DNA from: a virus
Taxonomy: Duplodnaviria; Caudoviricetes
IMG/VR virus record: IMGVR_UViG_3300021399_000014
Location: 2,566-66,565 of that record
Direction: 5' to 3' (one strand)
DNA: 64,000 bases
The notes beneath the pieces are model-generated. The model had not been told where the DNA came from, did no database searches, and saw nothing but the letters and a program-made list of their open reading frames with translations. Positions 579 to 30,830 of the stretch are shown here, piece by piece; the first letter of the stretch is position 1, and each line of letters starts with the position of its first letter. A program made the translations under genes and the position numbers.

Positions 579-979
579 GTACCGTTATCCGCAATGAGGT
601 AAGCAAGAAGAATCCCTATTATATTTCTAAGCACAGAATGCTGGAGCTTAAACATTTTTGTTTGCAGTACGAAGAATGGAGAAAGGAACGAGCAAAGATT
701 ATGGTACTACAGAGTTACGGATATGAAAAAATTCCCGGGAAGAAAATTTCTGATAAAGTTCCAAAACTTGCAATGAGAGCTGCTATGCTTGACGGATATA
801 TGGATCTCGTGCTCAGGTGCTGTAAGGAGACTGATGCTTATATTTGGACGTGGCTGTTTGAGGCTGTAACCTGCGGGCTTAGCTATGGAACGATGGTTAC
901 GAGAGGTATTCCATGTGGTAAGGATTATTACTACGACAGGTATAGGAAGTTCTTTTGGCTGCTTGATAAAGAGAGATGA
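566..979 (+). CDS. Conserved phage protein, possible transcription regulator (LELKHFCLQY type)
   Basis: ORF track 557..979; ATG at 566 preceded by GGAGG; C-terminal GLSYGTM...YYDRYRKFFWLLD resembles ArpU/RinA-like regulators (recall). Confidence 0.5.
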   Translation: MREMSTVIRNEVSKKNPYYISKHRMLELKHFCLQYEEWRKERAKIMVLQSYGYEKIPGKKISDKVPKLAMRAAMLDGYMDLVLRCCKETDAYIWTWLFEAVTCGLSYGTMVTRGIPCGKDYYYDRYRKFFWLLDKER

Positions 980-986
980 TTATATT

Positions 987-1003
987 TTACAGCTCCTTTA
1001 GTG
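987..1003 (+). promoter_or_regulatory. Phage early promoter motif copy
   Basis: TTACAGCTCCTTTAGTG preceded by GATTATATT. Confidence 0.65.
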
Positions 1004-1033
1004 ACAATAGTGTCGCACAGTAAGGAGGTAAGC

Positions 1034-1285
1034 ATGAACTATAACATCAATGCAACGATCCCTGAGACTGAGGAAATGCCGGTTCCGGATGTATATGGAA
1101 TTGTGAGCAACGGTCACTGGGTTGATGTATTCAACAGCGGCTATGACAAAGAAAAGATCAGGCTGCATTTTGTGTCACCAAGTGGCAAACAGGTTTACGT
1201 AGACATTACGGTAAAAGAGGCGGCAGACCTCAGAAAGGAGTTGAAGGCGGCGACCACATTAGTTCTCATTGCTGAGGACTACTAA
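1034..1285 (+). CDS. Hypothetical protein
   Basis: AAGGAGG RBS then ATG 1034; own promoter and terminator. Confidence 0.7.
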   Translation: MNYNINATIPETEEMPVPDVYGIVSNGHWVDVFNSGYDKEKIRLHFVSPSGKQVYVDITVKEAADLRKELKAATTLVLIAEDY

Positions 1286-3458: not shown

Positions 3459-3496
3459 CTTACGGCTCCTATTCCTTTTTGTTTTCTGATTATATT

Positions 3497-3894: not shown

Positions 3895-4170
3895 ATGTAC
3901 GTACACTTATTAGGCAAGGGAACCTACAAAAAGAAGATGAGTAAGCAGTTCAAAGATGAGAGCTTCATTGATGAGGATGGTTACATCATATATTCGTTTC
4001 AGGGAAGTCCTTCAGACATTCGCAAGGTGGCCAGGGTATTCGAGAAATACTATGGAAAACGCGACGCGGACCCCCATTGGACTTATCAAGTCATGCAGCA
4101 TAACTTTTTAATGGAATACCCGATCGATATAGCTACTTGCGACGGCCGAAATTTTTATGACATTTTCTGA
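3895..4170 (+). CDS. Hypothetical protein, paralogue of 1777..2034
   Basis: Shared motif GSPSDIRKVARV; RBS GAAAGGAG. Confidence 0.7.
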   Translation: MYVHLLGKGTYKKKMSKQFKDESFIDEDGYIIYSFQGSPSDIRKVARVFEKYYGKRDADPHWTYQVMQHNFLMEYPIDIATCDGRNFYDIF

Positions 4171-4177
4171 TTATATT

Positions 4178-4911: not shown

Positions 4912-4963
4912 TGCCGCACGTGGGTGACAACAGTAGCAATTATATTTGTAGAAAGGAGACAAT

Positions 4964-5487: not shown

Positions 5488-5521
5488 TAACTGTCAATTA
5501 TATTTGTAGAAAGGAGTAAAT

Positions 5522-6096: not shown

Positions 6097-6134
6097 AAAC
6101 TTATTATATTTGTTTTTAGGAAAGGAGGAGAACA

Positions 6135-6197: not shown

Positions 6198-6272
6198 CAC
6201 CAAAAGAGGAGTACATGCGAAAAGTGTGACTCCTCTTTTCTTTTTGACTGATTATATTTTAGGAGGTACAAA

Positions 6273-6692
6273 ATGGGAGCCGTATATGATATTTATTTAA
6301 CTCTGCGCGGAATAGAGGACGAAGACGAGATTGTAAGAAAAACAGCGGAATTCGTAGCAAATCATCCTAGCTATCGATTTGTGGACGCAGCATATAAACT
6401 CGATGAGAATTCGACTTTACTTGATGCACTGGATTCGATCTTTGGCGGATATGTTACTTCGACCTATTACGAAGAGGACAATTTTGGAAGATGCATACCG
6501 GAGCCGGACGAGTTCACCGCGCAATTTGACGCTGGCTATGGCTGGGCCGATGCTATGACGGAATGGTTCGAGTATATTAATCCTGCGTTAGGGGTCACTT
6601 CGAGTCTTCGTATTTATCCAGACGAACATCCGATAAAGATGATCAAATGGAGTAATGGCGAGATTGTTGACGGTGATCTTGCTAAGCTCTGA
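6273..6692 (+). CDS. Acidic hypothetical protein
   Basis: RBS AGGAGG; strongly D/E-rich. Confidence 0.7.
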   Translation: MGAVYDIYLTLRGIEDEDEIVRKTAEFVANHPSYRFVDAAYKLDENSTLLDALDSIFGGYVTSTYYEEDNFGRCIPEPDEFTAQFDAGYGWADAMTEWFEYINPALGVTSSLRIYPDEHPIKMIKWSNGEIVDGDLAKL

Positions 6693-6699
6693 TTATATT

Positions 6700-7006: not shown

Positions 7007-7100
7007 TCTATTCAGAGAGTCATCCATAATATTGGGTGACTCTCTTTTTTTCTTACCGTAGGAGGTATCGATTATATTCTGAAAGGAGACCAAATTGAGT

Positions 7101-8267
7101 ATGACCAGAGAAGAAAATATAAAAAGGCACAACGAACAGCAGACTATCCTGAAGGACAAGCGGCTTAACGAGTGCTATGAGATGGCTATAAATTCAGCAA
7201 ACGGAATCACAGTCAAAGAGGTCTGCATTACGTTTAAAGTTAGCAGCACATGCGCAAGAAGATATCTAAAAGAACTGATGGAGAAAGGACTCGTTCGAGA
7301 AGCAGGAAAAGACGGCCATACGGTTATATTTAAGGCAAACGATGGTCAGACCACAGATAGTAGCAAAGCGGTCATGGAAGTAGCAAATGACGGGAAAGAG
7401 TTTGAGCAGGACAGTTACATCCCGTGCACAGATAACTGCAAGCCAGGAGATATTATCTGGATCAGCTCTAGATCAGGCGGAGGAGCGTTCTTTAGATATC
7501 TCATCATTACTCCTTGGGAGCATAAAGCAATGGTTCTTGGGATATGCAGCGAGGAGCATCCTATGATCAATCTTAATGATCCTTATTATGTCTTTGTGGG
7601 CAACGATCCAGAAACCGGTAAGAAACTCTATGCGGACATTCGCAATAACTGCCAGAGAGGCTATAAGCAGTTCGGCGAAAGAGTCATGCATGTGGACCAG
7701 GACAGCTTTGATATTGTGAAGGCAAGACTTGCAAGAAGCATGGGTATCAGCACAGGAGGAACAAAGAGCGCAGATCCGCAGCTTCTTAGGGAAATCGAAG
7801 ACTGGAAGAAGCGATATAAGAAGCAGGCTGAAGAAGCTAGTCAGACTATTAATAAATTAACTTATGAAAGGGACCGCGATATACTGGATGAGCAGACTAA
7901 GCGGACAGAAGTTGAGGAGAAGTATGACGATCTGATGCGAGACTATAAGGCGGTTCTCCAGCGTGAAGAAGAAGCTAACAAGAGATGGCAGGAAGCTCAC
8001 GAGATGGTTGTTGAACTCGGAGAAGAACGGGATAGACTCTACGAGCAGCTTAACGCCACAACTGAGAAAACAAACGAGGTTGCTGTATCGGTGAATCAGG
8101 AGCTCGTGGTGGATCTTCAGAGCGAAAACGAGCGGCTTAAAGAACAACTCGTCGACCTTTCTATGCAGCTGGCGAGCGATTCCGCAAAGATAGCTGCGTA
8201 CGAGAAGCATGATGACACTCTCACGAAATTGTTATTCTGCATGATCAAGGGAGGAAAGAATGACTGA
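7101..8267 (+). CDS. N-terminal winged-HTH protein with long C-terminal coiled coil
   Basis: GITVKEVCITFKVSSTCARRYLKELMEKGLV wHTH pattern; C-terminal heptads. Confidence 0.65.
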   Translation: MTREENIKRHNEQQTILKDKRLNECYEMAINSANGITVKEVCITFKVSSTCARRYLKELMEKGLVREAGKDGHTVIFKANDGQTTDSSKAVMEVANDGKEFEQDSYIPCTDNCKPGDIIWISSRSGGGAFFRYLIITPWEHKAMVLGICSEEHPMINLNDPYYVFVGNDPETGKKLYADIRNNCQRGYKQFGERVMHVDQDSFDIVKARLARSMGISTGGTKSADPQLLREIEDWKKRYKKQAEEASQTINKLTYERDRDILDEQTKRTEVEEKYDDLMRDYKAVLQREEEANKRWQEAHEMVVELGEERDRLYEQLNATTEKTNEVAVSVNQELVVDLQSENERLKEQLVDLSMQLASDSAKIAAYEKHDDTLTKLLFCMIKGGKND

Positions 8268-8436
8268 GAAGAAATTAGGAAGACCTCCTCTCCCGGACGA
8301 AGATCGTAAAGGGACTTCTGTACGGGTTAGGCTTACTAATTCCGAGCTCGATGATGTTAAAAAGGAGGCTGAGGCTAACAAGGTCTCAGTCTCTGATTAT
8401 ATTCGAGAAAGGATTAAAGATAATGGAAAACACTAA
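8260..8436 (+). CDS. Ribbon-helix-helix (CopG/Arc-like) protein (not in ORF track)
   Basis: MTEKKLGRPPLPDEDRKGTSVRVRLTNSELDDVKKEAEANKVSVSDYIRERI; GGAGG RBS. Confidence 0.65.
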   Translation: MTEKKLGRPPLPDEDRKGTSVRVRLTNSELDDVKKEAEANKVSVSDYIRERIKDNGKH

Positions 8437-8584: not shown

Positions 8585-8598
8585 CCGGTGATTATATT

Positions 8599-8651: not shown

Positions 8652-9029
8652 ATGGACAAAACTATGCTGAAATTTAGGATTGAGGGACTCAAACGTAAGG
8701 CAAAAGAACTTGCGGAAAAAGTGGCGAAGGCAGTTAAGCAGGTCGCGCTCGCAGTCGTAGAGTTTGCTAAGAAGTACCCTCTTGAGTTTGCTACTATGTT
8801 GGTAGCAGCAGCTGGTGGAGGAATGAAGCTTATAAGGCGTCATGACAACCAGAAGGCTATCAAGGCAGAGGAAACCAAGAGAGAAAGGCAGATCTACGAC
8901 CGCAGCGAAGGTCACTACTGGACACTTAAGCGCAAGCCCAAAGCTGAAGAATGGGGCGAGATCAATTTCAGGAAGCGTAATGGTGAAGGCTATTACGAGA
9001 TCCTGACTGACATGGGACTTGTAGACTAA
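8652..9029 (+). CDS. Hypothetical protein with central hydrophobic helix
   Basis: RBS GAAAGGAG; FATMLVAAAGGG segment. Confidence 0.7.
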   Translation: MDKTMLKFRIEGLKRKAKELAEKVAKAVKQVALAVVEFAKKYPLEFATMLVAAAGGGMKLIRRHDNQKAIKAEETKRERQIYDRSEGHYWTLKRKPKAEEWGEINFRKRNGEGYYEILTDMGLVD

Positions 9030-9097
9030 TTATATTTAAGGAGTCATCCTACGTGGTGGCTCTTTTTATTTTTAGTGCTAGGAAAGGAGACATTTAA

Positions 9098-9370
9098 ATG
9101 AGGGCGTTTATTTGCGATTGGTGCGGGGACGCGTATAAACCTGAACCCATCTTAGTTTATGGTGGTTCACTGGCTGCTCAGCTTAAATTTAAGCAGGATA
9201 ACAAGCAGATAGAAGCTCCAATCGGCAGCGAAGCAATTCATATGAGTTGGAAAACGGAATATAGCGATTCGATTGCGGAACACTCGGGAAAAGTATATGA
9301 CATTTGTCCGAGTTGTGCCGAAGCGCTTAGAGATTTTATCAAAGGCAGGCAGAAAGGAGAACATAAATGA
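9098..9370 (+). CDS. Small Zn-finger protein (CxxC...CxxC)
   Basis: MRAFICDWCG...DICPSCA; same architecture as 16432..16701. Confidence 0.65.
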   Translation: MRAFICDWCGDAYKPEPILVYGGSLAAQLKFKQDNKQIEAPIGSEAIHMSWKTEYSDSIAEHSGKVYDICPSCAEALRDFIKGRQKGEHK

Positions 9371-10258: not shown

Positions 10259-10299
10259 AAACTGATTATATTTGTTTTTATTAGAAAGGAGGAGAAATT

Positions 10300-17313: not shown

Positions 17314-17320
17314 TTATATT

Positions 17321-17573: not shown

Positions 17574-17671
17574 TAAGCAGAAGGCTTGTATGATTCTAAC
17601 GAGTTGTACAGGCCTTCTTATTTTTCCACGTGCGCAAAAAAATATATTTATATAAGGAAAGGAGACCAAAA

Positions 17672-18601: not shown

Positions 18602-18769
18602 TGAGGTAAAATATGCTCAAAAAGACAGAAATTTGGGGCGATTGTCCGTACAGAAGGCTGGGCTGGGTCCGGAACGGCGGCGGTTGGAGTTATATTTGTG
18701 GCAAAACAGACGAAGGATGCGCTCCAGATTACTGTCTCGGGCCCGATGAAGACGCGAAAGGAGACAAAA

Positions 18770-20383: not shown

Positions 20384-23300
20384 ATGCTTGACTTCATCGA
20401 TATTATCGTAAAATTCAATAAAGACGGTTCAATCGAAGTTAGTCCTGACTTTATTAGCGGCGACAGAGTTACCGATCTCTTAATACGAGGAGGTGCTTTT
20501 CAAGCTGTATGGGACGCTGATAAAAGTATGTGGTCTACTAATGGACATGACGTTACCCGACTTGTGGATAATGAACTATGGCGTAAGGTCGATGAGCTAA
20601 AACTTAAATATGGCAGTGACCGTAATTATATTGTCAAGACCATGGCTAAGTTTTCATCAGGTAAGCTCACGGAATGGAATAAGTTCTTAAAGCAGAGTCC
20701 AGACCTTGCGCATTCATTAGACGACTATGTTACATTCAGTGACCAGAAAGTAACAAAGGAAGATTATGTCAGTAAGAGGCTGCCTTATTCTTTATCCGAT
20801 GGTCCTACTCCGTCATATGACACATTGGTTGGAACGTTATATTCTGACGAGGAACGCGACAAGATCGAATGGGCAGTTGGAGCAATAATGTCCGGCGATG
20901 CAAAAAAGATACAAAAGTTCATCGCTTTATACGGAGAAGGCGGAACCGGCAAATCCACAATTCTTAATATCATAAAGGATCTGTTCTCCGGATACTGTGT
21001 AACATTTAATGCCAAGGCACTAACGTCTAGTGGAAACCAGTTCCCTTTATCAAAGTTCAGGACCAATCCGCTAGTTGCTATACAGTACGACGGTAACCTA
21101 AGCCGTATCGAAGATAACTCAATACTTAACAGTTTGGTCGCTCATGAACCGATGACCGTCAACGAAAAATATAAAGCCGAGTACGATGCCGCGTTCTCGA
21201 CTTTTTTGTTTTTGGGCACAAATAAACCGGTTGCGATAACTGATGCTAAGTCTGGAGTTATTCGAAGGCTCATCGATGTTATTCCGTCTGGTAAACTTCT
21301 GCCTTACGATGTTTACGAACGGTGCATGAACGGCATACAGTTTGAGCTCGGTGCGATTGCTAAGCACTGCATTGACAAGTATAAGAGCATGGGACTCAAC
21401 TATTATGACAAGTACAAGCCAAATGCAATGTTTAGTGCGACAAACGATATGTATAACTTCGTCTACGACAACTATGACGAGTTCTGCAGCGAACCTTATA
21501 TTACTCTGAAGCATGCCTGGATGCTGTATAAGGATTACATGGAAGAAGGGCAATTTCAGTATCCGATGAACCAAAGAGCGTTTAAGTCAGAACTGGCAAA
21601 TTACTTTGAGCACTTCGACGAACGAGTTAGAACCGGCAACGGAGAAAGGCTCAGAAGTGTCTATCGAGGTTTCAAGAAAGACAAGTTCACGATCAGAGAG
21701 CATATCGAAGAAGAATATATTCCTATCGATGAGCTTGATTCTAAGGAAACGGCGGTTGAGGATGTAAGTGATTGGCTCGACCTTTGTAAGACAGAGAGCA
21801 TACTTGATTATATTCTTAAAGACTGCCCTGCTCAGTATGCCAAGGAGGACGGAACTCCGGAGAAATCGTGGGACCGGGTTACTACAACACTGAAAGACCT
21901 GGATACATCCAAGCTCCATTATATTTTGTTACCAGAGGGTCACATCATAATTGACCTTGATCTTAAAGACGAGTTTGGTAATAAATCTATGGACCTCAAT
22001 CTGGAATACGCCAGGAAGTTTCCACCTACATATGCCGAATTCAGTAAGAGTGGAGGAGGCATTCATCTGCATTATATTTATGACGGAGACGCAAGCAAGC
22101 TCAGTCGCATTTATGATGACAATGTAGAAATAAAAGTCTATAGCGGAAAAGCATCGCTCAGAAGGAGGCTGAGTTACTGCAACGATTCACCTATAGCAAC
22201 TATCAGCAGCGGATTACCGTTGAAAGGAGACAAAACAACTATGCTTAACGTAGATAGCATTCGAAGCGAGGTGCAACTGCGTAAGCTGATTAAGAACTGT
22301 TTGGCAAAGAAACACCACGGTCATACGGCTCCTGAAATTAATTATATTTTCAGCGAGCTGGACAAGGCATATAAGAATGGCATCCAATATGACGTCAGCG
22401 ACTTGTACAGACCGATTAAGGCATTTGCCATAAACAGCAGCAATCAGCCAAAGCAGTGTATGCGGCTTGTCGGGAAGATGAAGTTTAAGTCAAAAGAGTT
22501 TGAAAAGAATTCCGAAGGGAATCCAGAGGAACGAAATCAGATTATATTTGATCGAAGCGATCAGCCAGACGCATATGAAGAGAAGAAAGAAGATTCAGAT
22601 AAACCTTTGATTATATTTGATATCGAGGTTTTTCCGAATCTTCTTTTAATTTGTTGGAAAGAGCTCGGAGACAATAAACCCGTTTACACGATGATTAATC
22701 CGTCTCCTCAGGAAGTTAGCGACTTTGTCGAGAATCATCGGCTTATTGGCTTCAACTGCAGAGGATACGACAATCATATTCTCTATGCCAGGATTCTGGG
22801 GAAGAACAATGCTGAGATTTATAAGGTTTCACAAGACATCATCGGGAACAAGTTCGCTGGTTATGGTCCCGCATACAAGATTTCTGAAGCCGATATCTAT
22901 GACATCTGCAAGAAGAAGCAGGGTCTTAAGAAGTGGGAGATTGAGCTTGCTGAGAAAGGTCTGCTTGTTCACCATCAGGAGCTTGGCCTCAGATGGGATA
23001 AACCTGTGCCTGAAGATCAGTGGCATCTCGTCGGAGAATACTGTGCTAACGACGTTATTGCGACAGAAGCTGTTTGGAATGCCAATCAGGAAGACGTTAA
23101 GGCTAGAAGAGCACTGGCAAAAATTAGCGGTCTGAGCATTAACGAGCGTAACAGAGCGCATGCTGCCCGGATTATATTTGGCAACGATAAGCATCCTAAA
23201 CTGATATATACGGATTTAGCCACAGGAAAACGTAGCGATGGAACAATGGACGTTGCAGCGTTCCCTGGATACAAGTACAGCAGAGAAGGTATCGACAAAG

Positions 23301-24463
23301 AATTATATTCTGGCAAGGTTGTAACCGGTAAGTCCATTTACAAAGGGCAGGATCCGGGAGAAGGCGGCAGAGTGTTTGCGAAACCGGGAATGCATTACAA
23401 CGTTGCGCTTCTCGATATCGCGTCTATGCATCCGTCAAGTATCATTGCTCTGAATCTGTTCGGCGAGTATACGAAGCGGTTCAAGGAAATCGTAGACGCA
23501 AGACTGGCTATCAAGCATCGCGATATAGAGAAGCTCAAGACTCTTCTTGGCGGAGCCCTTATGGATGCTATCGGAAGTGACGAAGACATGGACATTTTGT
23601 CTGACGCACTGAAGCTCGTAATCAACAGTGTTTATGGATTCACTACTGCCACCTTCGACAATCCGTTTAAGGATCCCAGGAACGATGACAACATCGTGGC
23701 TAAGCGCGGTGCTCTCTTCATGATAGATCTTCAGGAAGAAGTAGAGAAACGCGGATTTACTGTTGCTCATATTAAGACAGACTCAATTAAGATTCCGAAT
23801 GCTACTCCGGAGATCATCGACTTCGTTATGGAGTTCGGTAAGAAGTACGGGTACAACTTTGAGCACGAAGCAACTTATGAACGCATGTGCTTGATGAACG
23901 ACGCTGTTTATATTGCTAAGTATGACGACAAAGGACAGCGTAATAAAGGCGGAAAGCATGCCGGTCAGTGGACTGCAACAGGAAAGCAGTTCCAGGTTCC
24001 TTATGTGTTCAAGAGCCTGTTCAGCCACGAAGCTATCGAGTTCAAGGATCTTTGTGAGACCAGATCGGTTTCTACAGCAATGCATCTCGATATGAACGAA
24101 GGACTTCCCGAGAACGAGCACAATTATATTTTCGTCGGAAGAGTCGGACAGTTCTGCCCTATCAAAGCTGGATGCGGTGGAGGAGAGCTTCTTCGTGAAG
24201 GCAAAGAAGAAGGCACTTTCGGAGCCGTTAACGGTACCAAGGGATATCGCTGGCTTGAGTCCGAAGTAGTGAGAACTCTCGGTAAAGAAGACGACATCGA
24301 CAGAAGTTACTATAAGGAGCTTGCTGACAGAGCTGTCGAAGATATTTCTAAACTTGGCGATTTCGAATCATTCGTTGGCGAGAGCGCTGATGCGTACGTT
24401 AATGCTGTGCCGTTTATGAATCCGCCAGTAGAAGCGGTTGGTGATGCGGCACAATTCAACTAA
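20384..24463 (+). CDS. SF3 helicase - AEP-type primase - family B DNA polymerase fusion
   Basis: Walker A GEGGTGKST; primase-like IIDLDLKD...SKSGGGIHLHY; exonuclease FDIEVF / GFNCRGYD; Pol motifs DIASMHPS, KLVINSVYG, IKTDS. Confidence 0.85.
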   Translation: MLDFIDIIVKFNKDGSIEVSPDFISGDRVTDLLIRGGAFQAVWDADKSMWSTNGHDVTRLVDNELWRKVDELKLKYGSDRNYIVKTMAKFSSGKLTEWNKFLKQSPDLAHSLDDYVTFSDQKVTKEDYVSKRLPYSLSDGPTPSYDTLVGTLYSDEERDKIEWAVGAIMSGDAKKIQKFIALYGEGGTGKSTILNIIKDLFSGYCVTFNAKALTSSGNQFPLSKFRTNPLVAIQYDGNLSRIEDNSILNSLVAHEPMTVNEKYKAEYDAAFSTFLFLGTNKPVAITDAKSGVIRRLIDVIPSGKLLPYDVYERCMNGIQFELGAIAKHCIDKYKSMGLNYYDKYKPNAMFSATNDMYNFVYDNYDEFCSEPYITLKHAWMLYKDYMEEGQFQYPMNQRAFKSELANYFEHFDERVRTGNGERLRSVYRGFKKDKFTIREHIEEEYIPIDELDSKETAVEDVSDWLDLCKTESILDYILKDCPAQYAKEDGTPEKSWDRVTTTLKDLDTSKLHYILLPEGHIIIDLDLKDEFGNKSMDLNLEYARKFPPTYAEFSKSGGGIHLHYIYDGDASKLSRIYDDNVEIKVYSGKASLRRRLSYCNDSPIATISSGLPLKGDKTTMLNVDSIRSEVQLRKLIKNCLAKKHHGHTAPEINYIFSELDKAYKNGIQYDVSDLYRPIKAFAINSSNQPKQCMRLVGKMKFKSKEFEKNSEGNPEERNQIIFDRSDQPDAYEEKKEDSDKPLIIFDIEVFPNLLLICWKELGDNKPVYTMINPSPQEVSDFVENHRLIGFNCRGYDNHILYARILGKNNAEIYKVSQDIIGNKFAGYGPAYKISEADIYDICKKKQGLKKWEIELAEKGLLVHHQELGLRWDKPVPEDQWHLVGEYCANDVIATEAVWNANQEDVKARRALAKISGLSINERNRAHAARIIFGNDKHPKLIYTDLATGKRSDGTMDVAAFPGYKYSREGIDKELYSGKVVTGKSIYKGQDPGEGGRVFAKPGMHYNVALLDIASMHPSSIIALNLFGEYTKRFKEIVDARLAIKHRDIEKLKTLLGGALMDAIGSDEDMDILSDALKLVINSVYGFTTATFDNPFKDPRNDDNIVAKRGALFMIDLQEEVEKRGFTVAHIKTDSIKIPNATPEIIDFVMEFGKKYGYNFEHEATYERMCLMNDAVYIAKYDDKGQRNKGGKHAGQWTATGKQFQVPYVFKSLFSHEAIEFKDLCETRSVSTAMHLDMNEGLPENEHNYIFVGRVGQFCPIKAGCGGGELLREGKEEGTFGAVNGTKGYRWLESEVVRTLGKEDDIDRSYYKELADRAVEDISKLGDFESFVGESADAYVNAVPFMNPPVEAVGDAAQFN

Positions 24464-24480
24464 GAAAGGAGATTATATTT

Positions 24481-25017
24481 ATGGCAACTAAGACTAATAT
24501 GACAATCAACAGAGAAGACGAGACTGTAGCATTCAACAACGCACAGATCCCTTATGGTGCGTGGAGAAACTTTGCAGGAGGGCCGACTCGTTTCGACCCC
24601 AAGAACACAAAGCGGTTCTTCGAGGTATTCTTGACTGAAGAAGAGGCTCAGCGTCTCTCCGATAAGGGATGGAACGTCAAGTGGCTCGAGCCTCGTAATC
24701 CCTCTGAGCCCAGACAGGCTCATATTAAGGTGTTCGTTAACTACGATGTGCCCAGAAGGTTCCAGCCTCGTATTTGGATGACCAGAAAGAAAGGTGATCC
24801 TATTCTGCTGGATGTCGAAGACCTTGCGCAGCTTGACGGCGATGATATCACGAGAGCTAAGCTCCAGATTCGTCCGTATGACTGGGAACTTCCTACAGGA
24901 GCTTGTGGCCGTAAGGCTATGCTGAAACAGATGTTCGTTACTATTGAGGAAGACGACTTCGGAGCTGAGTTCTTCGGTAATGATGAGGACGACGAAGATC
25001 TTCCGTTTGAGGAATGA
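24481..25017 (+). CDS. Single-stranded DNA-binding protein
   Basis: Position after the polymerase; OB-like core; acidic tail DEDDEDLPFEE. Confidence 0.7.
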   Translation: MATKTNMTINREDETVAFNNAQIPYGAWRNFAGGPTRFDPKNTKRFFEVFLTEEEAQRLSDKGWNVKWLEPRNPSEPRQAHIKVFVNYDVPRRFQPRIWMTRKKGDPILLDVEDLAQLDGDDITRAKLQIRPYDWELPTGACGRKAMLKQMFVTIEEDDFGAEFFGNDEDDEDLPFEE

Positions 25018-25028
25018 TTATATTTTAA

Positions 25029-26231
25029 ATGAGTTTTGAATTAAGAGAGCACCAGAAAGCGGCGCTTAAGAAGATGCGCAATGGATGCATCCTAAACGGT
25101 TCTGTCGGTTCTGGAAAGTCTCTTACTTCACTTGCCTATTACTATACTTTTGTGTGTAAAGGTTCTATGGCTAAGCGCACTATGAGCAAACCAAAGGACC
25201 TTTACATAATCACTACGGCAATGAAGAGAGATAAAAAAGAATGGCCATTAGAATGCGCTAGGTTTGGCTTGACTGAAGGCGATAATGATGTCGGCGTTAA
25301 AATCACGATCGACAGCTGGAATAATATCGCTAAGTATACTCAAGTCACTGGCGCATTCTTTATATTTGATGAACAACGAGTTGTAGGAAAAGGAGCTTGG
25401 GTCAAAGCGTTTCTATCTATAACTAAGCGAAACAAGTGGATACTTCTTACCGCAACTCCTGGAGACAACTTTATGGACTATTGTCCCGTGTTCATCGCTA
25501 ATGGCTTTTACAAGAACCGTACGGATTTTATCAGACAGCACGTCATACCTAAGCCATACGTTAAATATTGGGCAGTGGAACGATACGTCAATGTAAGAAA
25601 ATTATATTATTACAAAGACTTAATACTCGTCCCAATGGAGTATAAGCGAGACGTAGAATACCATCACATGGACGTTAAGGTGCCTTACTCATCAACAGCA
25701 TATAAACGAGCCATGAAAGATCGATGGAATATATTCGAGGACCGTCCAATTGCTAACGCCAGTGAGCTATGTTACGTGCTTAGGAGAATAGTGAACAGTG
25801 ACAGGCGGCGTGTCGACGCTGTAGGCGAACTTCTTGAAATGCATGGCAAGGCAATTATATTTTTTAACTTTACATACGAAGCGGAGATACTTGAAAAGCT
25901 GTGTAAAGATAAAAATATAGTATCAGCAAGATGGGACGGGCATAAACATGAGAAAATACCGGATGCTGAAAAGTGGGTATATCTTGTTCAGTACGCTGCC
26001 GGCGATAGTGGATGGAACTGCATAGAGACCGACACTATTATATTTTACTCACAGAACTATTCTTACAAGTCTACGGTTCAAGCGGCAGGACGAATAGACA
26101 GAATGAATACGCCGTTTAAGCATCTGTATTACTATCATGTCCGTTCACAGTCTGGAATTGACAATGCAATTCATAGAGCGCTGAAGCAGAAGAAGAAATT
26201 CAACGAGCGATCATATTTTAGCTCTTTTTAG
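25029..26231 (+). CDS. SNF2/SF2 helicase
   Basis: GSVGSGKS Walker A, FDEQ Walker B, LLTATP, QAAGRIDR motif VI. Confidence 0.85.
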   Translation: MSFELREHQKAALKKMRNGCILNGSVGSGKSLTSLAYYYTFVCKGSMAKRTMSKPKDLYIITTAMKRDKKEWPLECARFGLTEGDNDVGVKITIDSWNNIAKYTQVTGAFFIFDEQRVVGKGAWVKAFLSITKRNKWILLTATPGDNFMDYCPVFIANGFYKNRTDFIRQHVIPKPYVKYWAVERYVNVRKLYYYKDLILVPMEYKRDVEYHHMDVKVPYSSTAYKRAMKDRWNIFEDRPIANASELCYVLRRIVNSDRRRVDAVGELLEMHGKAIIFFNFTYEAEILEKLCKDKNIVSARWDGHKHEKIPDAEKWVYLVQYAAGDSGWNCIETDTIIFYSQNYSYKSTVQAAGRIDRMNTPFKHLYYYHVRSQSGIDNAIHRALKQKKKFNERSYFSSF

Positions 26232-26242: not shown

Positions 26243-26260
26243 TTACAATTCCTATAGTGA
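26243..26260 (+). promoter_or_regulatory. Phage promoter motif copy upstream of the nuclease-RNAP operon
   Basis: TTACAATTCCTATAGTGA preceded by GTGCACGTG. Confidence 0.55.
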
Positions 26261-26316
26261 GGAGAAAGAGAAGATATAAAAGTCGACTCTTTCTCTTTTT
26301 GTTTTTGGAGACAATT

Positions 26317-26604
26317 ATGCTTGAAAACAAATTTAAAACGAATCTGGTACAGACCATCAAAGATCGACTACCTGGTTCTATTATATTTCACCTAGATCCT
26401 AATGAACTTCAGGGTGCACCTGACTTACTCGTATTATATCGCGACAAGTGGGCGGCCCTTGAAGGAAAGAAAAACGCTAGTGCTTCCAAAAGACCTAATC
26501 AGGAGTACTACGTCAAACTGTTTAACAGTATGTCATTCGCAAGATTCATATATCCGGAAAACAGTAAGGAGGTTCTAGATGAGCTCATCGATTTTATGGA
26601 ATGA
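26317..26604 (+). CDS. VRR-NUC / PD-(D/E)xK nuclease (resolvase-like)
   Basis: GAPDLLVL...ALEGK...RPNQ motif. Confidence 0.75.
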   Translation: MLENKFKTNLVQTIKDRLPGSIIFHLDPNELQGAPDLLVLYRDKWAALEGKKNASASKRPNQEYYVKLFNSMSFARFIYPENSKEVLDELIDFME

Positions 26605-27157
26605 CCATCGCCGTCTTAAGGGACAGCATGCGTTGTTCAGTCCATCGAATCCGTCATGGATTAGATATGACGCAGACAAAGTTCGATCATATTTGCAATC
26701 TATTGAAGCTAGAGCTCTTGGTACTAGACTTCATGACTACGCTTGTCAAAGCATCGAACTAGGACGAAAACTTCCGAGCAGACCGGCGGACACAATATCC
26801 CTTTATGTGAACGATGCCATCAAACTCGGAATGACACCAGAGCAATGCTTATATTATTCGCAGTATTGCTATGGTCACGCAGATGCTATTAAATTCGATC
26901 GTGGCACGATCAGAATACATGATCTTAAAACCGGCTCGCTTCCTGGCAAAATGGATCAGCTATTGATCTATGACGCTCTGTTCTGTCTCGAATATGGATA
27001 CGATCCGCATAGCATCAAGCACAATCTCAGGATTTATCAGTATGACGACATTAACGAAGTCACGCCGCATCCTGATGATATTGCAGAGTATATGGATCAG
27101 ATTATCAAGGTAGACGAGATCAAAACTGGCGCAATGGGGGAAGCGAATTATGAGTGA
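26579..27157 (+). CDS. Cas4-like / DUF2800-type PD-(D/E)xK exonuclease
   Basis: HALFSPS...GTRLHD...GHADAI...IHDLKTG...QLLIY motifs. Confidence 0.7.
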   Translation: MSSSILWNDHRRLKGQHALFSPSNPSWIRYDADKVRSYLQSIEARALGTRLHDYACQSIELGRKLPSRPADTISLYVNDAIKLGMTPEQCLYYSQYCYGHADAIKFDRGTIRIHDLKTGSLPGKMDQLLIYDALFCLEYGYDPHSIKHNLRIYQYDDINEVTPHPDDIAEYMDQIIKVDEIKTGAMGEANYE

Positions 27158-29957
27158 ATTATATTCTATATGGGAAGGCGAGTTCCTATCACATGAGGGT
27201 AAAGCTCATGACGAGAACCCTCCTGGACGAGGTTCTGGTAGATATGGCTGGGGTACTGGTGAACGAAAGTACCAGCATCTTCCTTGGGCGACCAAGGCTG
27301 GTATGGAAATAAAGCAGCTTCAAGCTGAAGGTCTAAAGATGAAGCAAATCGCAGCTGCTCTCGGGACGAGTCAGGCTAATCTGCGAAGGTGCTTAAGCAT
27401 AGACAAAGAGGCTCGCGACATTCGCGACAGGAACGAGCTCATCAGACTCAGGGATATCGAAGGCGTTACGTCTATGCGAGAAATGTCCAGGCGCACAGGC
27501 ATTCCTCTCACTACCGTGGGCAATCTCTTGAGAGAAAACACCCAGGCTAAGATAGAACGTAATGCTAAGTATATGGAGATTCTGCGTAAGCAGATTGAAG
27601 AGAAAGGGCATATCGACGTCGGAGCTGGGACTGAACATAACTTAGGCGTTAGCTCCACAAAGATGAACCAGCTGGTTAAGTCCCTTGCTGAAGAAGGCTA
27701 TGTACTGTCTCATCCTAAAGTGCCGCAGGCCGGAACCAGCTATGATACAAATATGCTCGTTCTGTCCAAGAAAGGTACGCCGAAGAATTATATTTATAAC
27801 CACATAGAAGATATTAAGACATTAGACGATCTTCATGTGGTGGACGACGGTAACGGTCCAAAAGAAGCTAAGTTCCATGATCCTAAGAGTATTGACTCAT
27901 CGAGAGTAGCTGTTAAATACAATGAGGAAGGCGGACTCGCTAAAGATGGACTAATTCAGTTAAGGCGTGGAGTTCCTGAACTTAATCTCGGCAACAGCAA
28001 CTATGCGCAGGTTCGTATTGCCGTTGACGGTACACATTACATTAAGGGAATGGCCGTCTATGGTGACGACGAAGACTTCCCGAATGGTGTCGACGTTCTC
28101 TTTAACACCAATAAGAAACTCGGCACTCCCATGATGGGCGCTAAAGACAACACTGTGTTCAAGCCGATCAAAGGTGAAGGACTTCAGGCATTTGGCGCTA
28201 CAATCAGAGACCAGAACGACTGGACTGATGAGAACGGTAAACACCATGAGGGTCTCGTAAACATTGTTAAAGAGCAGGGTGTATGGCATGAGCAGCAAAG
28301 AACGCTTGCCTCACAATTCTTGGCTAAGCAATCACATCAGCTGGCCAAGAAACAGCTTGACCTTGCTTACGCCGATAAAGAGAACGAGTTCAAGGAAATT
28401 CAGGCACTTGACAATCCCGTTGTTAAACAGCGCATGCTCCGGTCTTTCGCTGAAGAATGCGACGCTGCTGCTGTACATCTCAAAGCTGCGGCAATTCCGA
28501 GACAGTCATGGAACGTTATTATTCCAATGACCACTCTTAAAGATAACGAAATCTATGCTCCCGCCTATAAAGATGGCGAAGAGGTGGTCTGCATTCGTTA
28601 TCCTCACGGCGGTAAATTTGAACTTGTACAGCTTAAGGTCAATAACCGTAACAAAGAGGGCAAGAAAGTACTGGGTTCGGACGCCTTTGACGCCGTAGGC
28701 ATAGGCAAATCGTCTGCTGACAAGCTCTCTGGTGCTGACTTTGATGGCGATACAGTTCTTGTTATACCTAACCCTAAGAAGCCCACTAAAAATGGGAAAT
28801 ACAAGTATGAGATTTCTGTTAGAGACTCGCTCGAAGGACTCAAAGACTTTGATCCTAAGATAACTTATGGTGGCGTAGCTGAAAAAGACAGGATGACGAG
28901 CAAAAACACTCAGCGCCAGATGGGCATCATATCTAATCTTATTAGTGATATGACGATCCTTGGGGCCGATGATGATGAACTTGCCAGAGCAGTAAGACAT
29001 AGCATGGTCGTTATCGACGCTGAGAAGCACGGGCTTGATTACAAGCGGTCGTATAAAGACAACAAGATCGCTGAGCTCAAGAAGAAGTACCAAGGCGGCG
29101 GAGGCGTAGCGACACTTCTGTCTAGAGCCAAGAACCCCAGGTACGTGCCTGCCCGAGTCACCAACAACCCCTATGATATCGATGAAGAGACTGGCGAACG
29201 CATCTGGAATAACCAGAAAGAACGTAAGTACATCGATAAGGACGGGGTAGAGCGTACTATCAAGCCCCGCAACATCAAGACGTACTGGATGGATACTGTA
29301 TCTGATGCTCGAGAATTAATCTCCGATCGGAACACGGTAATAGAGAACGTTTACGCTAACTTTGCTAATGAGTGTAAGGCTTTGGCTAATCGTGCGCGCA
29401 AAGAACTCGTTCGTTCTAGTAAAGAGGAGCACCTTGAATACAGCAAGGAAGCAGCCAAGACCTATGCAAAAGAAGTAGAGGAGCTTAATCGCAAGCTTTT
29501 GACCGCACAGAAGAACGCGCCCAGAGAGAGGGCGGCGCAAAGATTAGCCAACCTCAGGGTAAAGGATGCGGTAGAGAATGCAAAGCTGAACGGAACCGAG
29601 CTGACTGATAGCGAGGTACGTAAGCTCCTTGCTAAACAGATTGAACCTGCCCGCAGAGAGGTGGGAGCTAAGAAAGAGCGGGTCAAGTTCACCGAACGTG
29701 AGTGGGAAGCAGTGCAGAAGGGGGCTATTCATCAGACCACCCTGGCCAAGCTTCTAAGCAATGCGGATGAGAAGAACTATAAGACCCTGGCTACCCCTAG
29801 AGACCAGCGTGGGCTGTCACAGTACAAGATCAACCGGATAAAGGGTATGCTAGAGGCCGGGGTAGATACCCGTACCATGCAGTGGATAGCCGACTACATG
29901 GGAGTGTCCCTGTCAACTATTGCTGCAGTCAAGTCTGGTAAATACGACAAGAAGTAA
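27150..29957 (+). CDS. Single-subunit two-barrel RNA polymerase (YonO / RdRP-like) with fused HTH domains
   Basis: RYPH (28596-28607), catalytic LSGADFDGD (28731-28751), GIISNLI and VIDAEK motifs; two N-terminal and one C-terminal HTH-like segments. Confidence 0.8.
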   Translation: MSELYSIWEGEFLSHEGKAHDENPPGRGSGRYGWGTGERKYQHLPWATKAGMEIKQLQAEGLKMKQIAAALGTSQANLRRCLSIDKEARDIRDRNELIRLRDIEGVTSMREMSRRTGIPLTTVGNLLRENTQAKIERNAKYMEILRKQIEEKGHIDVGAGTEHNLGVSSTKMNQLVKSLAEEGYVLSHPKVPQAGTSYDTNMLVLSKKGTPKNYIYNHIEDIKTLDDLHVVDDGNGPKEAKFHDPKSIDSSRVAVKYNEEGGLAKDGLIQLRRGVPELNLGNSNYAQVRIAVDGTHYIKGMAVYGDDEDFPNGVDVLFNTNKKLGTPMMGAKDNTVFKPIKGEGLQAFGATIRDQNDWTDENGKHHEGLVNIVKEQGVWHEQQRTLASQFLAKQSHQLAKKQLDLAYADKENEFKEIQALDNPVVKQRMLRSFAEECDAAAVHLKAAAIPRQSWNVIIPMTTLKDNEIYAPAYKDGEEVVCIRYPHGGKFELVQLKVNNRNKEGKKVLGSDAFDAVGIGKSSADKLSGADFDGDTVLVIPNPKKPTKNGKYKYEISVRDSLEGLKDFDPKITYGGVAEKDRMTSKNTQRQMGIISNLISDMTILGADDDELARAVRHSMVVIDAEKHGLDYKRSYKDNKIAELKKKYQGGGGVATLLSRAKNPRYVPARVTNNPYDIDEETGERIWNNQKERKYIDKDGVERTIKPRNIKTYWMDTVSDARELISDRNTVIENVYANFANECKALANRARKELVRSSKEEHLEYSKEAAKTYAKEVEELNRKLLTAQKNAPRERAAQRLANLRVKDAVENAKLNGTELTDSEVRKLLAKQIEPARREVGAKKERVKFTEREWEAVQKGAIHQTTLAKLLSNADEKNYKTLATPRDQRGLSQYKINRIKGMLEAGVDTRTMQWIADYMGVSLSTIAAVKSGKYDKK

Positions 29958-29969
29958 GGAGGAACGAGT

Positions 29970-30248
29970 ATGGCTAAAGACTATTGGGTCACTACCTCGA
30001 AGAATCCTTATGACCCCTTTACCCAGTGGGCTGACTGGTATCATTATGACGAGTATGAGAAGCGCTACTGTACAACTGGTTTGATGGCGCGTTTTTCATC
30101 GTGTAGTGACGATGACCCGGAAAGCTGGAAAAGGGAATCTGATTTACGGGCAGCTACCATAATTATTAACGAAATACCTCTCCTGTCAGACGACGAAGAG
30201 TATGTGCTTGTTACAAGAGATGTCCCTGATGAAGACGAAGATTCATAG
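29970..30248 (+). CDS. Small acidic protein following the RNAP gene
   Basis: AAGGAGG RBS; TTSKNPYDPFTQWADWY motif. Confidence 0.65.
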   Translation: MAKDYWVTTSKNPYDPFTQWADWYHYDEYEKRYCTTGLMARFSSCSDDDPESWKRESDLRAATIIINEIPLLSDDEEYVLVTRDVPDEDEDS

Positions 30249-30249
30249 G

Positions 30250-30830
30250 CTTGACCTCCTCCTTTAATACAAGACATAGTGTGATTATTATAGCTTTGTA
30301 TGCACTTGCTTTTACACATCTGTATGCAAAGCTATTGATTCACACTATAACGATCTTAACGTGTCTTTACAACACCATACTCACTGCACAAACCTTATTG
30401 TTATGCATACAGTTGCTTAAAGATATAGAATCAAACAAATTAATTTAGTTTCTTTTAGTATTTTAGTTATTAACAAACAGAATAAAAAGTATTTGACTTT
30501 GTTTTAATCTATTCAAAACAAAACTTTTTAACTAATTTAAACTATTTGTTTAATGTTTTTAAGTATTTTTGTTATATTGAATGGATTTTGTTTGTTTTTA
30601 ATCTCATTTAAAGGCAGAAATAGGTATAAACATGCTTAAAAACGAAGAAATTAAAAGATTTTCAATCAAAAATCCTTTTGCAGGCTTCAAAAAGCATACA
30701 AAACGCTCACCACTCTGGTCTATTTCGACAAAAAGAGGGTAGAGGGGGGTCCAAAAAATGCACACCCCCACCCATATCGCGCCCATCTTTATTTTTCCCC
30801 CGGAGGATTATATTTTCAAAACTTTCTAGT
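30250..30830. other. Non-coding AT-rich / G-C tract region, candidate genome end (cos/pac)
   Basis: No credible gene; very AT-rich 30420-30660; GGGTAGAGGGGGGT...CACCCCCACCC symmetry; lies just upstream of the terS/HNH/terL operon. Confidence 0.4.

Follow-up and report, generated by a model that had tools for sequence, protein, structure and literature searches.

Strand-polar oligomers that run across coding sequence, as the word described here does, are known as Chi, KOPS and the one-way EcoP15I sites of phage T7. Chi and KOPS, however, are G-rich words specific to their hosts and occur far more sparsely, and the EcoP15I sites differ in having an orientation bias without enrichment. The -10-like pause elements, such as the sigma-70-dependent pauses of lambdoid late promoters and the NusG-dependent TTNTTT pauses of Bacillus and Mycobacterium, resemble the present word as short AT-rich non-template words oriented with transcription; to our knowledge, however, they are single and promoter-proximal or loosely scattered, and none is selected at one per 130–670 nt through coding sequence. 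The class II pause/termination signal of T7 RNA polymerase, which is ATCTGTT followed by a U-run, is likewise a sequence-specific, orientation-dependent and hairpin-free signal of 7–8 nt followed by T and read by a phage polymerase, but each genome has one or a few such signals rather than a saturating array. The stoperators of Cluster A mycobacteriophages (L5 gp71 sites) are also dozens of asymmetric, transcription-oriented sites, several of which overlap stop codons; they are, however, 13–14 bp long, almost only intergenic, lineage-private and found in temperate phages, whereas here two thirds of the copies are intragenic, no repressor or integrase was found in this phage, and the core is common across phyla. 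The localized single-strand nicks of phages T5 and tf are similarly confined to one strand, but at few sites per genome (PMC3517423). The four-in-one replicase GP55 of Lactococcus phage 1706, an ortholog of which is encoded in the DNA under study, primes at the five-base template word 5'-CCAAC-3'; synthesis begins at the second base, and the three bases at the 3' end are not copied (PMC12205980).

We analysed a 64-kb window (bases 2566–66565 of a 66,565-bp contig with ends overlapping by 122 bp) from an uncultured gut phage, the host of which is probably a Firmicute. The word ATTATATT, with a full form of TGATTATATT(T) and a core of ATATT, is strand-exclusive, under strong nucleotide-level selection, spaced and regional, with a family-conserved core and a fixed register beside a promoter-like element (P; TG-N9-TACAG-N4-TATAAT). 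What reads the word, and to what effect, is inferred. A literature search found no paper describing a one-way ATTATATT or ATATT word.

Distribution of the word along the genome

An exact search of the window found 51 copies of ATTATATT on the + strand, which carries the genes, and 0 on the - strand, and the whole 66.4-kb genome gave 54:0, whereas dinucleotide shuffles of the window gave 3.9 ± 1.9 copies with both strands summed (maximum, 9). The word is about 10–25 times over its expected frequency. The one-strand enrichment in the original prediction was therefore stronger than claimed (51:0 vs approximately 4 expected), and its polarity was supported, the copies being wholly strand-asymmetric. 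All 36 coordinates that it listed before 31 kb are true copies, although it missed those at 618, 10656, 13943, 14539, 17974, 19308, 20625, 23302, 31560 and 60293 and displaced two real ones (about 55134 for 55132, and 62104 for 62105). Because all genes lie on one strand, orientation cannot separate transcription, RNA and DNA readings. The copies of ATTATATT and the features that bound their zones are as follows.

618–625, +, within CDS 575–979, frame 1
979–986, +, first A is last base of TGA stop of CDS 575–979; then TTACAG (degenerate P)
3489–3496, +, intergenic, after T-run; adjoins full P (TTACAGCTCCTATAATAG)
4170–4177, +, overlaps stop of 3895–4170; adjoins degenerate P
4939–4946, +, intergenic; 6 nt 5' of ribosome-binding site, 25 nt before ATG 4964
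5497–5504, +, intergenic; 11 nt after P (5471), 25 nt before ATG 5522
6103–6110, +, leader of 6273; 8 nt after P (6080)
6251–6258, +, intergenic; 22 nt before ATG 6273
6692–6699, +, overlaps stop of 6273–6692; adjoins P
7071–7078, +, intergenic; 24 nt before start 7095
8396–8403, +, CDS 8260–8436, frame 1; 27 nt before ATG 8423
8591–8598, +, intergenic; adjoins P variant (TTGCAGGTCCTAATATAG)
9029–9036, +, overlaps TAA stop of 8652–9029
10265–10272, +, intergenic; 8 nt after P (10242)
10656–10663, +, CDS 10539–11342, frame 0 (Ile-Ile-Phe)
11770–11777, +, CDS 11743–12018, frame 0
12430–12437, +, CDS 12162–12809, frame 1
13943–13950, +, CDS 13779–14063, frame 2
14539–14546, +, CDS 14079–14744, frame 1
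15442–15449, +, small CDS near 15438–15722, frame 1
16701–16708, +, overlaps stop of 16432–16701; adjoins P
17313–17320, +, overlaps stop of 17020–17313; adjoins degenerate P
17502–17509, +, CDS 17355–17573, frame 0
17974–17981, +, CDS 17630–18601, frame 2
19308–19315, +, CDS 18698–19528, frame 1
20625–20632, +, replicase CDS, frame 1; relative has word at same position
21807–21814, +, replicase CDS, frame 1
21918–21925, +, replicase CDS, frame 1
22071–22078, +, replicase CDS, frame 1
22341–22348, +, replicase CDS, frame 1
22541–22548, +, replicase CDS, frame 0
22610–22617, +, replicase CDS, frame 0
23171–23178, +, replicase CDS, frame 0
23302–23309, +, replicase CDS, frame 2; word displaced 3 nt in relative
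24123–24130, +, replicase CDS, frame 1
24472–24479, +, intergenic; between ribosome-binding site and ATG 24481
25017–25024, +, overlaps stop of 24481–25017; 12 nt before ATG 25029
25601–25608, +, helicase CDS, frame 2
25854–25861, +, helicase CDS, frame 0
26037–26044, +, helicase CDS, frame 0
26380–26387, +, CDS 26257–26604, frame 0
27158–27165, +, RNA polymerase CDS, 5' end, frame 2
27787–27794, +, RNA polymerase CDS, frame 1; last of the densely packed copies
30807–30814, +, non-coding stretch 30448–30992, site of genome ends in linear relatives
31560–31567, +, CDS 31266–31757, frame 0
31568–55131, +, word-free stretch, 23.5 kb without ATTATATT or TTATATT
49083–49112, +, terminator-like hairpin, 13-bp stem, directly 3' of tape-measure gene
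55132–55139, +, CDS 53967–55172, frame 1; opens sparse zone in distal tail genes
55875–55882, +, CDS 55169–56698, frame 1
60293–60300, +, CDS 59959–61674, frame 1
62028–62052, +, terminator-like hairpin, 10-bp stem, directly 5' of dense zone
62105–62112, +, intergenic; 53 nt after hairpin 62028–62052, 67 nt before ATG 62172; dense zone begins; copy conserved in relative
63240–63247, +, holin-like CDS 62982–63374, frame 0
63823–63830, +, intergenic; abuts ATG 63831

By zone, 45 copies lie in 1–31567, 3 in 55–61 kb and 3 in 62.1–64 kb, and since the 2.5 kb outside the window hold 3 further + copies, the dense zone runs unbroken from 62.1 kb across the contig junction to 31.6 kb. The word-free stretch, which begins just beyond the long non-coding stretch 30448–30992, spans the genes for terminase, portal, capsid, tail and tape measure plus 6 kb beyond them, and across 35–45% of the genome the word is at chance level. 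Codon usage outside the sites is alike in early and late genes (0.23 vs 0.19 for ATA and 0.11 vs 0.12 for TTA), indicating that the gap reflects an absence of selection for the word, not codon cost. The placement of the signal in an early/replication half was correct in that the copies are asymmetric between genome halves as well as strands, but imprecise, as the zone also takes in lysis genes and, more sparsely, distal tail genes, and in relatives it covers different gene sets. Furthermore, the copies are never closer than 66 nt, and gaps shorter than 60 nt are absent among the 80 copies of TATATT in the window, whereas 10 were expected. The original prediction took the copies as putative binding sites of a phage factor acting in antitermination or processivity, genome internalisation or nucleoid tethering. 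A transcription-linked role (processivity or pausing) is the reading that we tentatively favour, whereas nucleoid tethering would have no requirement for sites on a single strand only.

Selection at the nucleotide level and register with P

A synonymous-codon shuffle preserving every protein and the codon usage of each gene gave 6.25 ± 2.15 in-gene copies (maximum, 12) compared with the 34 present, so that the enrichment persisted under a codon-preserving null. About two thirds of the copies are intragenic, in all three reading frames, and codon choice is bent to keep them: 30 of the 36 peptide sites in early genes that are compatible with the word actually hold it, and a relative with 50% conservation elsewhere retains 97% at the synonymous positions of the word. 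This near saturation and conservation support selection on DNA or RNA, not on proteins, as had been predicted. Because the ATATT core is kept in relatives from two bacterial phyla, ATTATATT is a real selected signal. We regard as hardly credible the view that it has no positive function and reflects either the avoidance of head-to-head Type III restriction sites or a codon or peptide by-product. Co-oriented sites do escape Type III enzymes, as is known for CAGCAG of T7, but such evasion needs no enrichment, yet the word is 10–25 times too frequent, and the codon shuffle, the 97% conservation and the 30 of 36 filled sites contradict this view.

The word is also tied to P. TTACAG directly follows six copies of ATTATATT, and the ATATT-N1-TACA register was seen in the window, in a relative with 65% identity and in the Gordonia phage Secretariat, with a spacer of 1 in all 7 close pairs. 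The TG that flanks the word falls on the conserved TG of P, and further copies lie in leaders, 8–11 nt after P. TATATT and the TATAAT box of P differ at a single base, and ATATT, as read from sequence, retains the A and T that a -10 box has at positions -11 and -7; this is, together with the position of some copies a few bases after P, a likeness to -10-like pauses. P is conserved among phages of Lactococcus, Gordonia and Arthrobacter and this gut phage, and no -35 was found at sigma-A spacing.

The leader copies bear on the possibility, which we consider unlikely, that the word acts in the mRNA as AUAUU, being an endoribonuclease cleavage site or a landing site of an RNA-binding protein that would make non-core transcripts shorter-lived or adjust their translation. 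The word invariably reads in the mRNA sense, is preceded by G in 27 of the 51 copies and, in many intergenic cases, lies 0–8 nt 5' of the ribosome-binding site or between that and the ATG; the word-free block, moreover, comprises the virion genes expected to be expressed most. However, its predicted RNA accessibility equals that of other AT-only 7-mers, with no downstream structure, and neither the even spacing nor the fixed register beside P would be expected. A core common to phages of two phyla also needs a shared reader, yet no RNase or RNA-binding protein exclusive to word-bearers was found.

Relatives and candidate readers

The ATATT core, with variable 5' flanks, runs one-way in many phages of the same family, of which a single-chain RNA polymerase and a four-in-one replicase are common features, and word-bearers include cultured phages of Gordonia, Rhodococcus, Streptomyces, Microbacterium, Curtobacterium and Arthrobacter. 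Throughout the approximately 20 genomes and loci examined, the copies are co-oriented with genes. The 5' flank depends on lineage (TG-ATATT, TGATT-ATATT or [C/G/T]-ATATT), whereas the 3' part of the core is invariant. Some relatives have one word per 130 nt; in dense lineages the gaps, of about 130 nt, have a CV of 0.57, and Secretariat has no gaps shorter than 60 nt among 107 TATATT copies, compared with 19 expected. The word zone differs by lineage and follows gene modules, which fits expression units better than whole-genome replication. Its start in Secretariat lies within the tape-measure gene, the first P being 7 kb further downstream, and Streptomyces phage Rainydai is almost without the word in its final 17 kb (40–57.6 kb), which includes the polymerase gene. 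Circum and P078, which have the same family polymerase, carry no one-way word.

Copies are few in the last 1–3 kb before the right end of linear relatives, as in the matching stretch of the window, which is unfavourable to the idea of a DNA site handled on one strand, either nicked site-specifically, as in T5 and Pseudomonas phage tf, or Chi-like, taming a helicase-nuclease that enters from one genome end. Strand exclusivity is a hallmark of phage nick sites (phage tf, PMC3517423), and among the genes that the family retains are those for a helicase, an exonuclease and an ssDNA-binding or annealing protein. However, neither a nickase nor an HUH/HNH gene was detected here, and in phages known to be nicked the sites number a handful rather than 50–300. 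Chi words are host-specific, whereas this core is common to Actinobacteria phages and a gut, probably Firmicute, phage. We thus consider such a site improbable.

Two gene products are candidate readers, and a candidate origin precedes the second.

27150–29957, +, single-chain two-barrel RNA polymerase with HTH modules (phrog_4291), candidate reader
20101–20247, strand unassigned, iteron-like tandem repeats, unit lengths 11 nt and 31 nt, in the non-coding gap 5' of the replicase gene, candidate origin
20384–24463, +, replicase (helicase + AEP primase + PolB), ortholog of phage 1706 GP55, candidate reader

The replicase, 37% identical to its P078 homolog, underlies the main rival explanation, which we hold to be doubtful, namely that the AEP primase recognises the word in its template. 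Priming would begin opposite the second base of 5'-ATATT-3', the variable 5' flank would be copied, and selection would retain sites at intervals of a few hundred bases along the strand exposed as single-stranded DNA. As with GP55, the core is a five-base word read on one strand, and its invariant 3' part would be recognised but uncopied. The copies are frequent yet spaced, with no gaps shorter than 60 nt in the window or in Secretariat, and the replicase is present in all word-bearing records checked. On the other hand, the sequence differs from CCAAC, which is neither enriched nor one-way in the 1706-like phage P078; the word is absent from more than one third of the genome, which codon cost does not explain, and the exempt region is a gene module that differs among lineages. 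The word also does not switch strand at the candidate origin, lying on the + strand to either side, and its fixed register with P is unaccounted for. Some replicase-bearing relatives lack any word, and no replicase domain tracks its presence; the specificity of GP55, described as less stringent, could account for word-less lineages.

No polymerase domain was closer among word-bearers than to word-less relatives. In the GenBank record of ReqiPepy6, phage 1706's homolog of the polymerase is labelled 'structural protein', which would fit a polymerase that enters with the virion to transcribe early genes. In vitro, little pausing is seen with YonO, a distant homolog (PMC5467207).

A possible transcription signal

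Our tentative explanation, to which we give a probability of about 0.3, is that the word is a signal read during transcription, being a pause or attenuation site for the phage polymerase. The gene-wise orientation, the word-free block, the terminator-like hairpins after the tape-measure gene and before the dense zone, the register with P and the -10 resemblance point to this pause reading. Several observations point the other way: the even spacing is more natural for priming sites, Circum and P078 have the same polymerase but no one-way word, and no polymerase domain tracks the word. The first 6 kb after the tape-measure terminator also lack the word in the window, and neither the start of the Secretariat zone nor the almost word-free polymerase region of Rainydai is in keeping with it. 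Moreover, we know of no transcription signal at such a density (one per 130 nt). Unlike the readers of known -10-like pauses, the proposed reader is a single-chain phage polymerase, and a candidate only.

If the pause reading is correct, TGATTATATT(T) would be a polar cis-signal on the sense side, read as non-core genes are transcribed, most likely as a non-template-strand word resembling a -10 box, which appears in the transcript as AUAUU. The single-chain polymerase, in which promoter-reading modules are permanently fused, may re-recognise the word during elongation, and at each copy, every few hundred bases, transcription could pause briefly or be partially attenuated. Such pauses would keep a fast, little-pausing polymerase in step with ribosomes and limit the output of early, replication, lysis and distal-tail genes, while the packaging-head-tail-tube operon would be kept word-free for maximal output.

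The one-way word and the selection on it

By exact search, the word ATTATATT, an 8-mer with an ATATT core, was found in 51 copies in the window, all on the + strand, compared with 3.9 ± 1.9 copies (maximum 9) for both strands together in 100 dinucleotide-preserving shuffles. The 2.5 kb outside the window held three further + copies and zero − copies; the viral contig of 66,565 bp, of which the window represents bases 2566-66565, has an end overlap of 122 bp and is a circular assembly of ~66.4 kb. All genes are oriented on the + strand. Two shorter forms were also one-way, TTATATT with a ratio of 73:3 in the window and TATATT with one of 98:19 in the whole genome, and the word with its flanks reads T(-2) G(-1) ATTATATT T/C(+8) T(+9). 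The original prediction, in which copies had been listed by eye, was confirmed as an observation: every listed coordinate was real, and ten copies had been missed. Its interpretation, that the copies are polar sites selected as DNA or RNA and bound by a phage factor, was supported in part: the selection at the nucleotide level held, and the copies would at most be candidate sites for such a factor. Among sequencing runs, the phage was matched only by contigs assembled from four DNA runs, all of the same animal-gut study, with no RNA run listed.

The copies occupied all three reading frames (Ile-Ile-Phe, x-Tyr-Ile, and x-Leu-Tyr-x), and 34 of the 51 were located within genes, compared with 6.25 ± 2.15 when synonymous codons were shuffled within each gene, so that the enrichment persisted against a codon-preserving null. 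The symmetry between strands or genome halves that had been named as evidence against the word was absent. In early genes, peptide sites were spelt as the word in 11 of 11 cases for IIF/IIL, 13 of 15 for [DHNY]YI, and 6 of 10 for xLY[..]; in late genes, this was so at 3 of 12 compatible sites. The relative, an IMG/VR contig of 66,153 bp with an RNA polymerase 65% identical to that of the window, carried 49 copies on the + strand and 0 on the − strand, flanked as in the window and confined to its right half. For 30 TATATT sites of the window in orthologous genes, the alignment placed 19 at an identical position in the relative, and one was re-created 3 nt off. Where the amino acid was identical between the two phages, the codon was also identical at 56 of 58 positions within sites, compared with 50% in the rest of the same genes and 51% in late genes. 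Thus, the codon shuffle, the filling of peptide sites, and the synonymous conservation rule out the word as a by-product of codons or peptides, and we give next to no credence to a word without positive function. Evasion of Type III restriction, which would leave one orientation without enrichment, was also rejected because, although the orientation bias was present, the word was enriched (z 16.6 against the codon shuffle) and conserved. The word is genuine, under strong selection, and widely distributed within one phage family.

The copies were frequent yet well separated. In the early arm of the window, the 80 TATATT copies had zero gaps of less than 60 nt, compared with 10 expected, and a smallest gap of 66 nt; in Gordonia phage Secretariat, the 107 ATATT copies also had none, compared with 19 expected, and a smallest gap of 73 nt. 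The coefficient of variation (CV) of the gaps was 0.57-0.59 in dense lineages, compared with ~1 under random placement. Because the background rate is low, this spacing points to a lack of selection for a further copy close by, rather than to a ban on one, and selection therefore favours coverage, not clusters.

The word beside a promoter-like element and across the family

A promoter-like element, P, with the form TTACAG-N4-TATAAT-AG, occurs ~20 times in the early arm (window 988-26260), and nearly every P of the window has a TG nine bases 5′ of TACAG. The layout TACA-N5-TATAAT was also found in Lactococcus phage P078, Secretariat, and Arthrobacter phage Circum. A −35 at the sigma-A spacing is absent from P, which may be a promoter of the phage polymerase. 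About half of the P copies come after a hairpin and T-run, with GGTGTACA upstream. At six copies of the word (979, 3489, 4170, 6692, 16701, and 17313), TTACAG follows directly and the TG flank of the word is also that of P. In most of these six, the first A is at the same time the last base of the stop codon of the preceding gene, an overlap seen in seven copies in all. Three others (5497, 6103, and 10265) are in the leader, 8-11 nt after P. Both the relative and Secretariat show the register ATATT-N1-TACA again, with a spacer of 1 in 7 of 7 close pairs.

The placement of copies beside ribosome-binding sites would fit a site acting in RNA, recognised by an RNase or an RNA-binding protein. This reading has no candidate reader, and both a downstream hairpin and special accessibility were absent at the word; the 60 nt upstream were slightly more structured, probably owing to terminators. 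We consider an RNA-level site rather unlikely.

In Secretariat (52.8% G+C), ATATT occurred 116 times on the + strand and twice on the − strand (z 18.8 against the codon shuffle), preceded by two bases other than A and followed by C/T, with nearly all copies in 23-55 kb. Other AT-only 5-mers are rare on both Secretariat strands, and a low count on the − strand is therefore unremarkable taken alone. In five further cultured actinophages, the + to − counts of ATATT were 176:6 in ReqiPepy6 (Rhodococcus), 297:93 in Qui, 51:5 in Rainydai (Streptomyces), 61:3 in DizzyRudy (Microbacterium), and 43:15 in Eevee. Many of 80 IMG/VR loci of the family also had one-way words with the common core and a lineage-specific 5′ flank, namely, (T)GATATT, TTATATT/ATTATATT, or [C/G/T]ATATT, and the densest had one copy per ~130 nt; TGATTATATT is a longer variant in an animal-gut phage lineage. 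The core is common to phages of Gordonia, Rhodococcus, Streptomyces, Microbacterium, Curtobacterium, and Arthrobacter and to the animal-gut phage. In Circum, P078, and MT835495, codon-shuffle z-scores and the spacing statistic revealed neither a one-way nor another hidden word.

In a polymerase tree (FastTree), word-bearers of all flavours were interleaved with word-less lineages, the trait being scattered with many changes. No gene exclusive to word-bearers was found, a BLAST candidate at 18698-19528 having a homolog in word-less Circum as well, and no replicase or polymerase domain was closer among word-bearers. No real reverse gene block was found in word-bearing genomes or loci; the sole candidate ORF, in Qui, was spurious by annotation. 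Other roles in DNA, as a nicking site or a Chi-like word, are quite unlikely: they lack a supporting gene, the proteins scanned with Pfam and PHROG having no nickase domain, and the same core across phages of many hosts argues against a Chi-like word specific to host RecBCD/AddAB.

Genome layout, the word-free late block, and the replicase

Genes were assigned from Pfam and PHROG scans.

Features of the window (all genes on the + strand)
9367-10233, 10539-11342, and 17630-18601: three DUF6353/phrog_2152 paralogs of the early arm, a family of unknown function
12996-13769: 257-aa protein, weak pentapeptide-repeat matches and a C-terminal DUF5758 domain
14079-14744: 221-aa protein, dATP/dGTP diphosphohydrolase N-terminal domain PF18909 (E 1e-23)
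20101-20247: iteron-like tandem repeats (11-nt TGGCCCACTTT x3, 31-nt unit x2.3, 11-nt unit x2.5)
20384-24463: helicase/primase/polymerase of 1359 aa (the replicase)
24481-25017: ssDNA-binding or annealing protein
25029-26231: helicase
26579-27157: exonuclease
27150-29957: 935-aa protein, phrog_4291 (E 3.7e-291), HTH matches and a weak RdRP match (the polymerase)
34636-36384: terminase large subunit
36397-37680: portal
37686-39524: protease/capsid
42354-49073: tape measure
49083-49112: terminator-like hairpin directly 3′ of the tape-measure gene
62028-62052: terminator-like hairpin just ahead of the dense zone
62982-63374: holin-like

PF18909 belongs to nucleotide-pool editing in phages with modified bases. 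Neither an integrase nor a repressor was found in the scans of the larger genes, and a megablast of 12 kb against GenBank phages gave only short weak matches. The distal tail or fibre-like gene at 57889-59646 (585 aa, no Pfam match) contains a head-to-tail array of a 27-bp unit (x26.8, 58729-59451) that translates into a repeat of nine residues and is the source of the one-way words ACCTTTGG and CTGCGGCT, and the tail-region gene at 52884-53801 has a 42-nt (14-residue) repeat ~9 times at 53037-53584. A late-half word in the original prediction, TCAAAATG (window 36606-57619), includes start codons in several copies and stands out in relatives as TCAAAAT(G) (MT835495, 11:0; L067, 16:0; L102, 19:1).

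When the window was linearised at the non-coding stretch of 30.4-31.0 kb, where linear relatives have their ends, the first 24.2 kb contained one TTATATT, followed by one per kb to 31 kb and then by a dense zone reaching the 5′ portion of the polymerase gene; the copy-free stretch was 23.5 kb. Codon usage outside sites was equal in early and late genes, which excludes codon cost as the reason for the word-free late block. In nine genomes compared, the free block always contained the packaging, head, and tail-tube genes and ended inside the tape-measure gene or at most 6 kb beyond, 13-26 kb from the left end. A fixed physical distance was thus a poor predictor of the boundary, as was the tape-measure gene, relative to whose end the boundary ranged from −4.7 to +5.9 kb. 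One genome (G002) had a drop of only two-fold, and Rainydai was almost without the word over its final 17 kb (40-57.6 kb), including the polymerase gene. At the two strong terminator-like hairpins, the late region of the window is split into two units, one running from packaging to tape measure and the other comprising the distal tail.

The replicase is an ortholog of phage 1706 GP55, a characterised helicase, AEP primase, and PolB enzyme, the primase of which prefers the template word 5′-CCAAC-3′ and starts at its second base (PMC12205980). The word could possibly be a template recognition site of this primase, a reading that we rank second and hold to be less likely than not. It is the sole reading with a biochemical precedent, a five-base word read by an orthologous enzyme, and it gives the best account of why the spacing is even and the 5′ flank varies. 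The word has a core of 5 nt in which the 3′ part is invariant, and a 5′ flank that depends on the lineage; in this its likeness to the GP55 site is formal only. However, the primase reading gives no reason for a third or more of the genome to do without sites, for the exemption to follow a gene module that is not the same in every lineage, or for the word to keep a fixed register beside P. Nor does it explain the lack of a strand change at the iteron-like repeats, a candidate replication origin. These repeats fill the non-coding gap directly 5′ of the replicase gene, and the word is on the + strand at either side of them (20.1-20.25 kb); with this and the 23.5 kb free of copies, coverage of the whole lagging-strand template with a switch at the putative origin was not found. 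The replicase was present in all word-bearers checked and also in word-less Circum and P078, and CCAAC was not a one-way word in P078.

A proposed signal read during transcription and its significance

A phage group comprising an actinophage supercluster and the Lactococcus 1706-like and Faecalibacterium phages has the 935-aa phrog_4291 protein as its signature "putative RNA polymerase" (bioRxiv 10.1101/842583). This protein was found in 250 GenBank phage records, being the last large gene of the genome in the records listed. In the record of ReqiPepy6 (gp106; L123, GenBank GU580941), a depositors' note labels the polymerase homolog of phage 1706 (gp75) a "structural protein", which hints that the family polymerase is carried in the virion.

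We place first the reading that the word is a signal read during transcription, with a probability of about 0.3. This would explain why the copies point with the genes, why coverage goes by modules, and why the word is tied to P and resembles its TATAAT box. The GenBank note counts in its favour, as does the fact that YonO, a distant polymerase homolog, pauses little (PMC5467207). The word also resembles −10-like elongation pause signals, in that ATATT corresponds to −11 to −7 with one mismatch, A(-11) and T(-7) match, and all copies are on the non-template strand. On the other hand, a transcription signal at this density is without precedent, and word-less relatives retain the enzyme, a problem that the primase reading has too. 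A promoter, whether of sigma-A or of a minimal kind such as T4 late TATAAATA, was rejected because no −35 was conserved, the TG is two bases, not one, before TATATT, two thirds of the copies are in genes, and copies reach one per 130 nt in relatives. Like stoperators, the copies are all co-oriented with transcription, seven of them at stop codons; unlike these intergenic repressor-bound sites of temperate phages, they are mostly inside genes.

In the mechanism that we propose for a transcription signal, a single-chain two-barrel polymerase, possibly delivered by the virion, would be unable to shed its promoter-reading modules and would be slowed or attenuated at a −10-like word recurring at intervals of 130-670 bases along the coding strand, with the virion core operon kept free of it. 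That the ATATT-core word is, in this full form, an elongation code of the whole family is a tentative and rather improbable proposal. The probability not taken up by these readings belongs to something not yet thought of.

The word is akin to the known "polar genome words". Neither it nor its reader was named or described in the literature searched, in which the 8-mer itself retrieved unrelated matches only; work on YonO promoters, the Arthrobacter-phage polymerase, and ReqiPepy6 did not describe it, and the search found no paper on phage 1706 promoters. Because the word overrides codon choice ~50 times per genome, is conserved amid divergence, and has its core in phages of two bacterial phyla, its reader must be something important. 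The family has two unusual enzymes, a putative single-chain relative of cellular RNA polymerase and a helicase-primase-polymerase fusion, and the best means at hand of learning how one of them functions in vivo is probably this word. Since one-way ATATT is present in cultured SEA-PHAGES relatives (Secretariat, ReqiPepy6, DizzyRudy, Rainydai, Qui, and Eevee), mapping of pauses, primers, and nicks is directly feasible. Synonymous recoding or synthetic redesign of word-bearing phages would silently destroy the signal. If the elongation code is true, the word would represent a new class of cis-element and the first known regulatory logic for the single-chain polymerase family.
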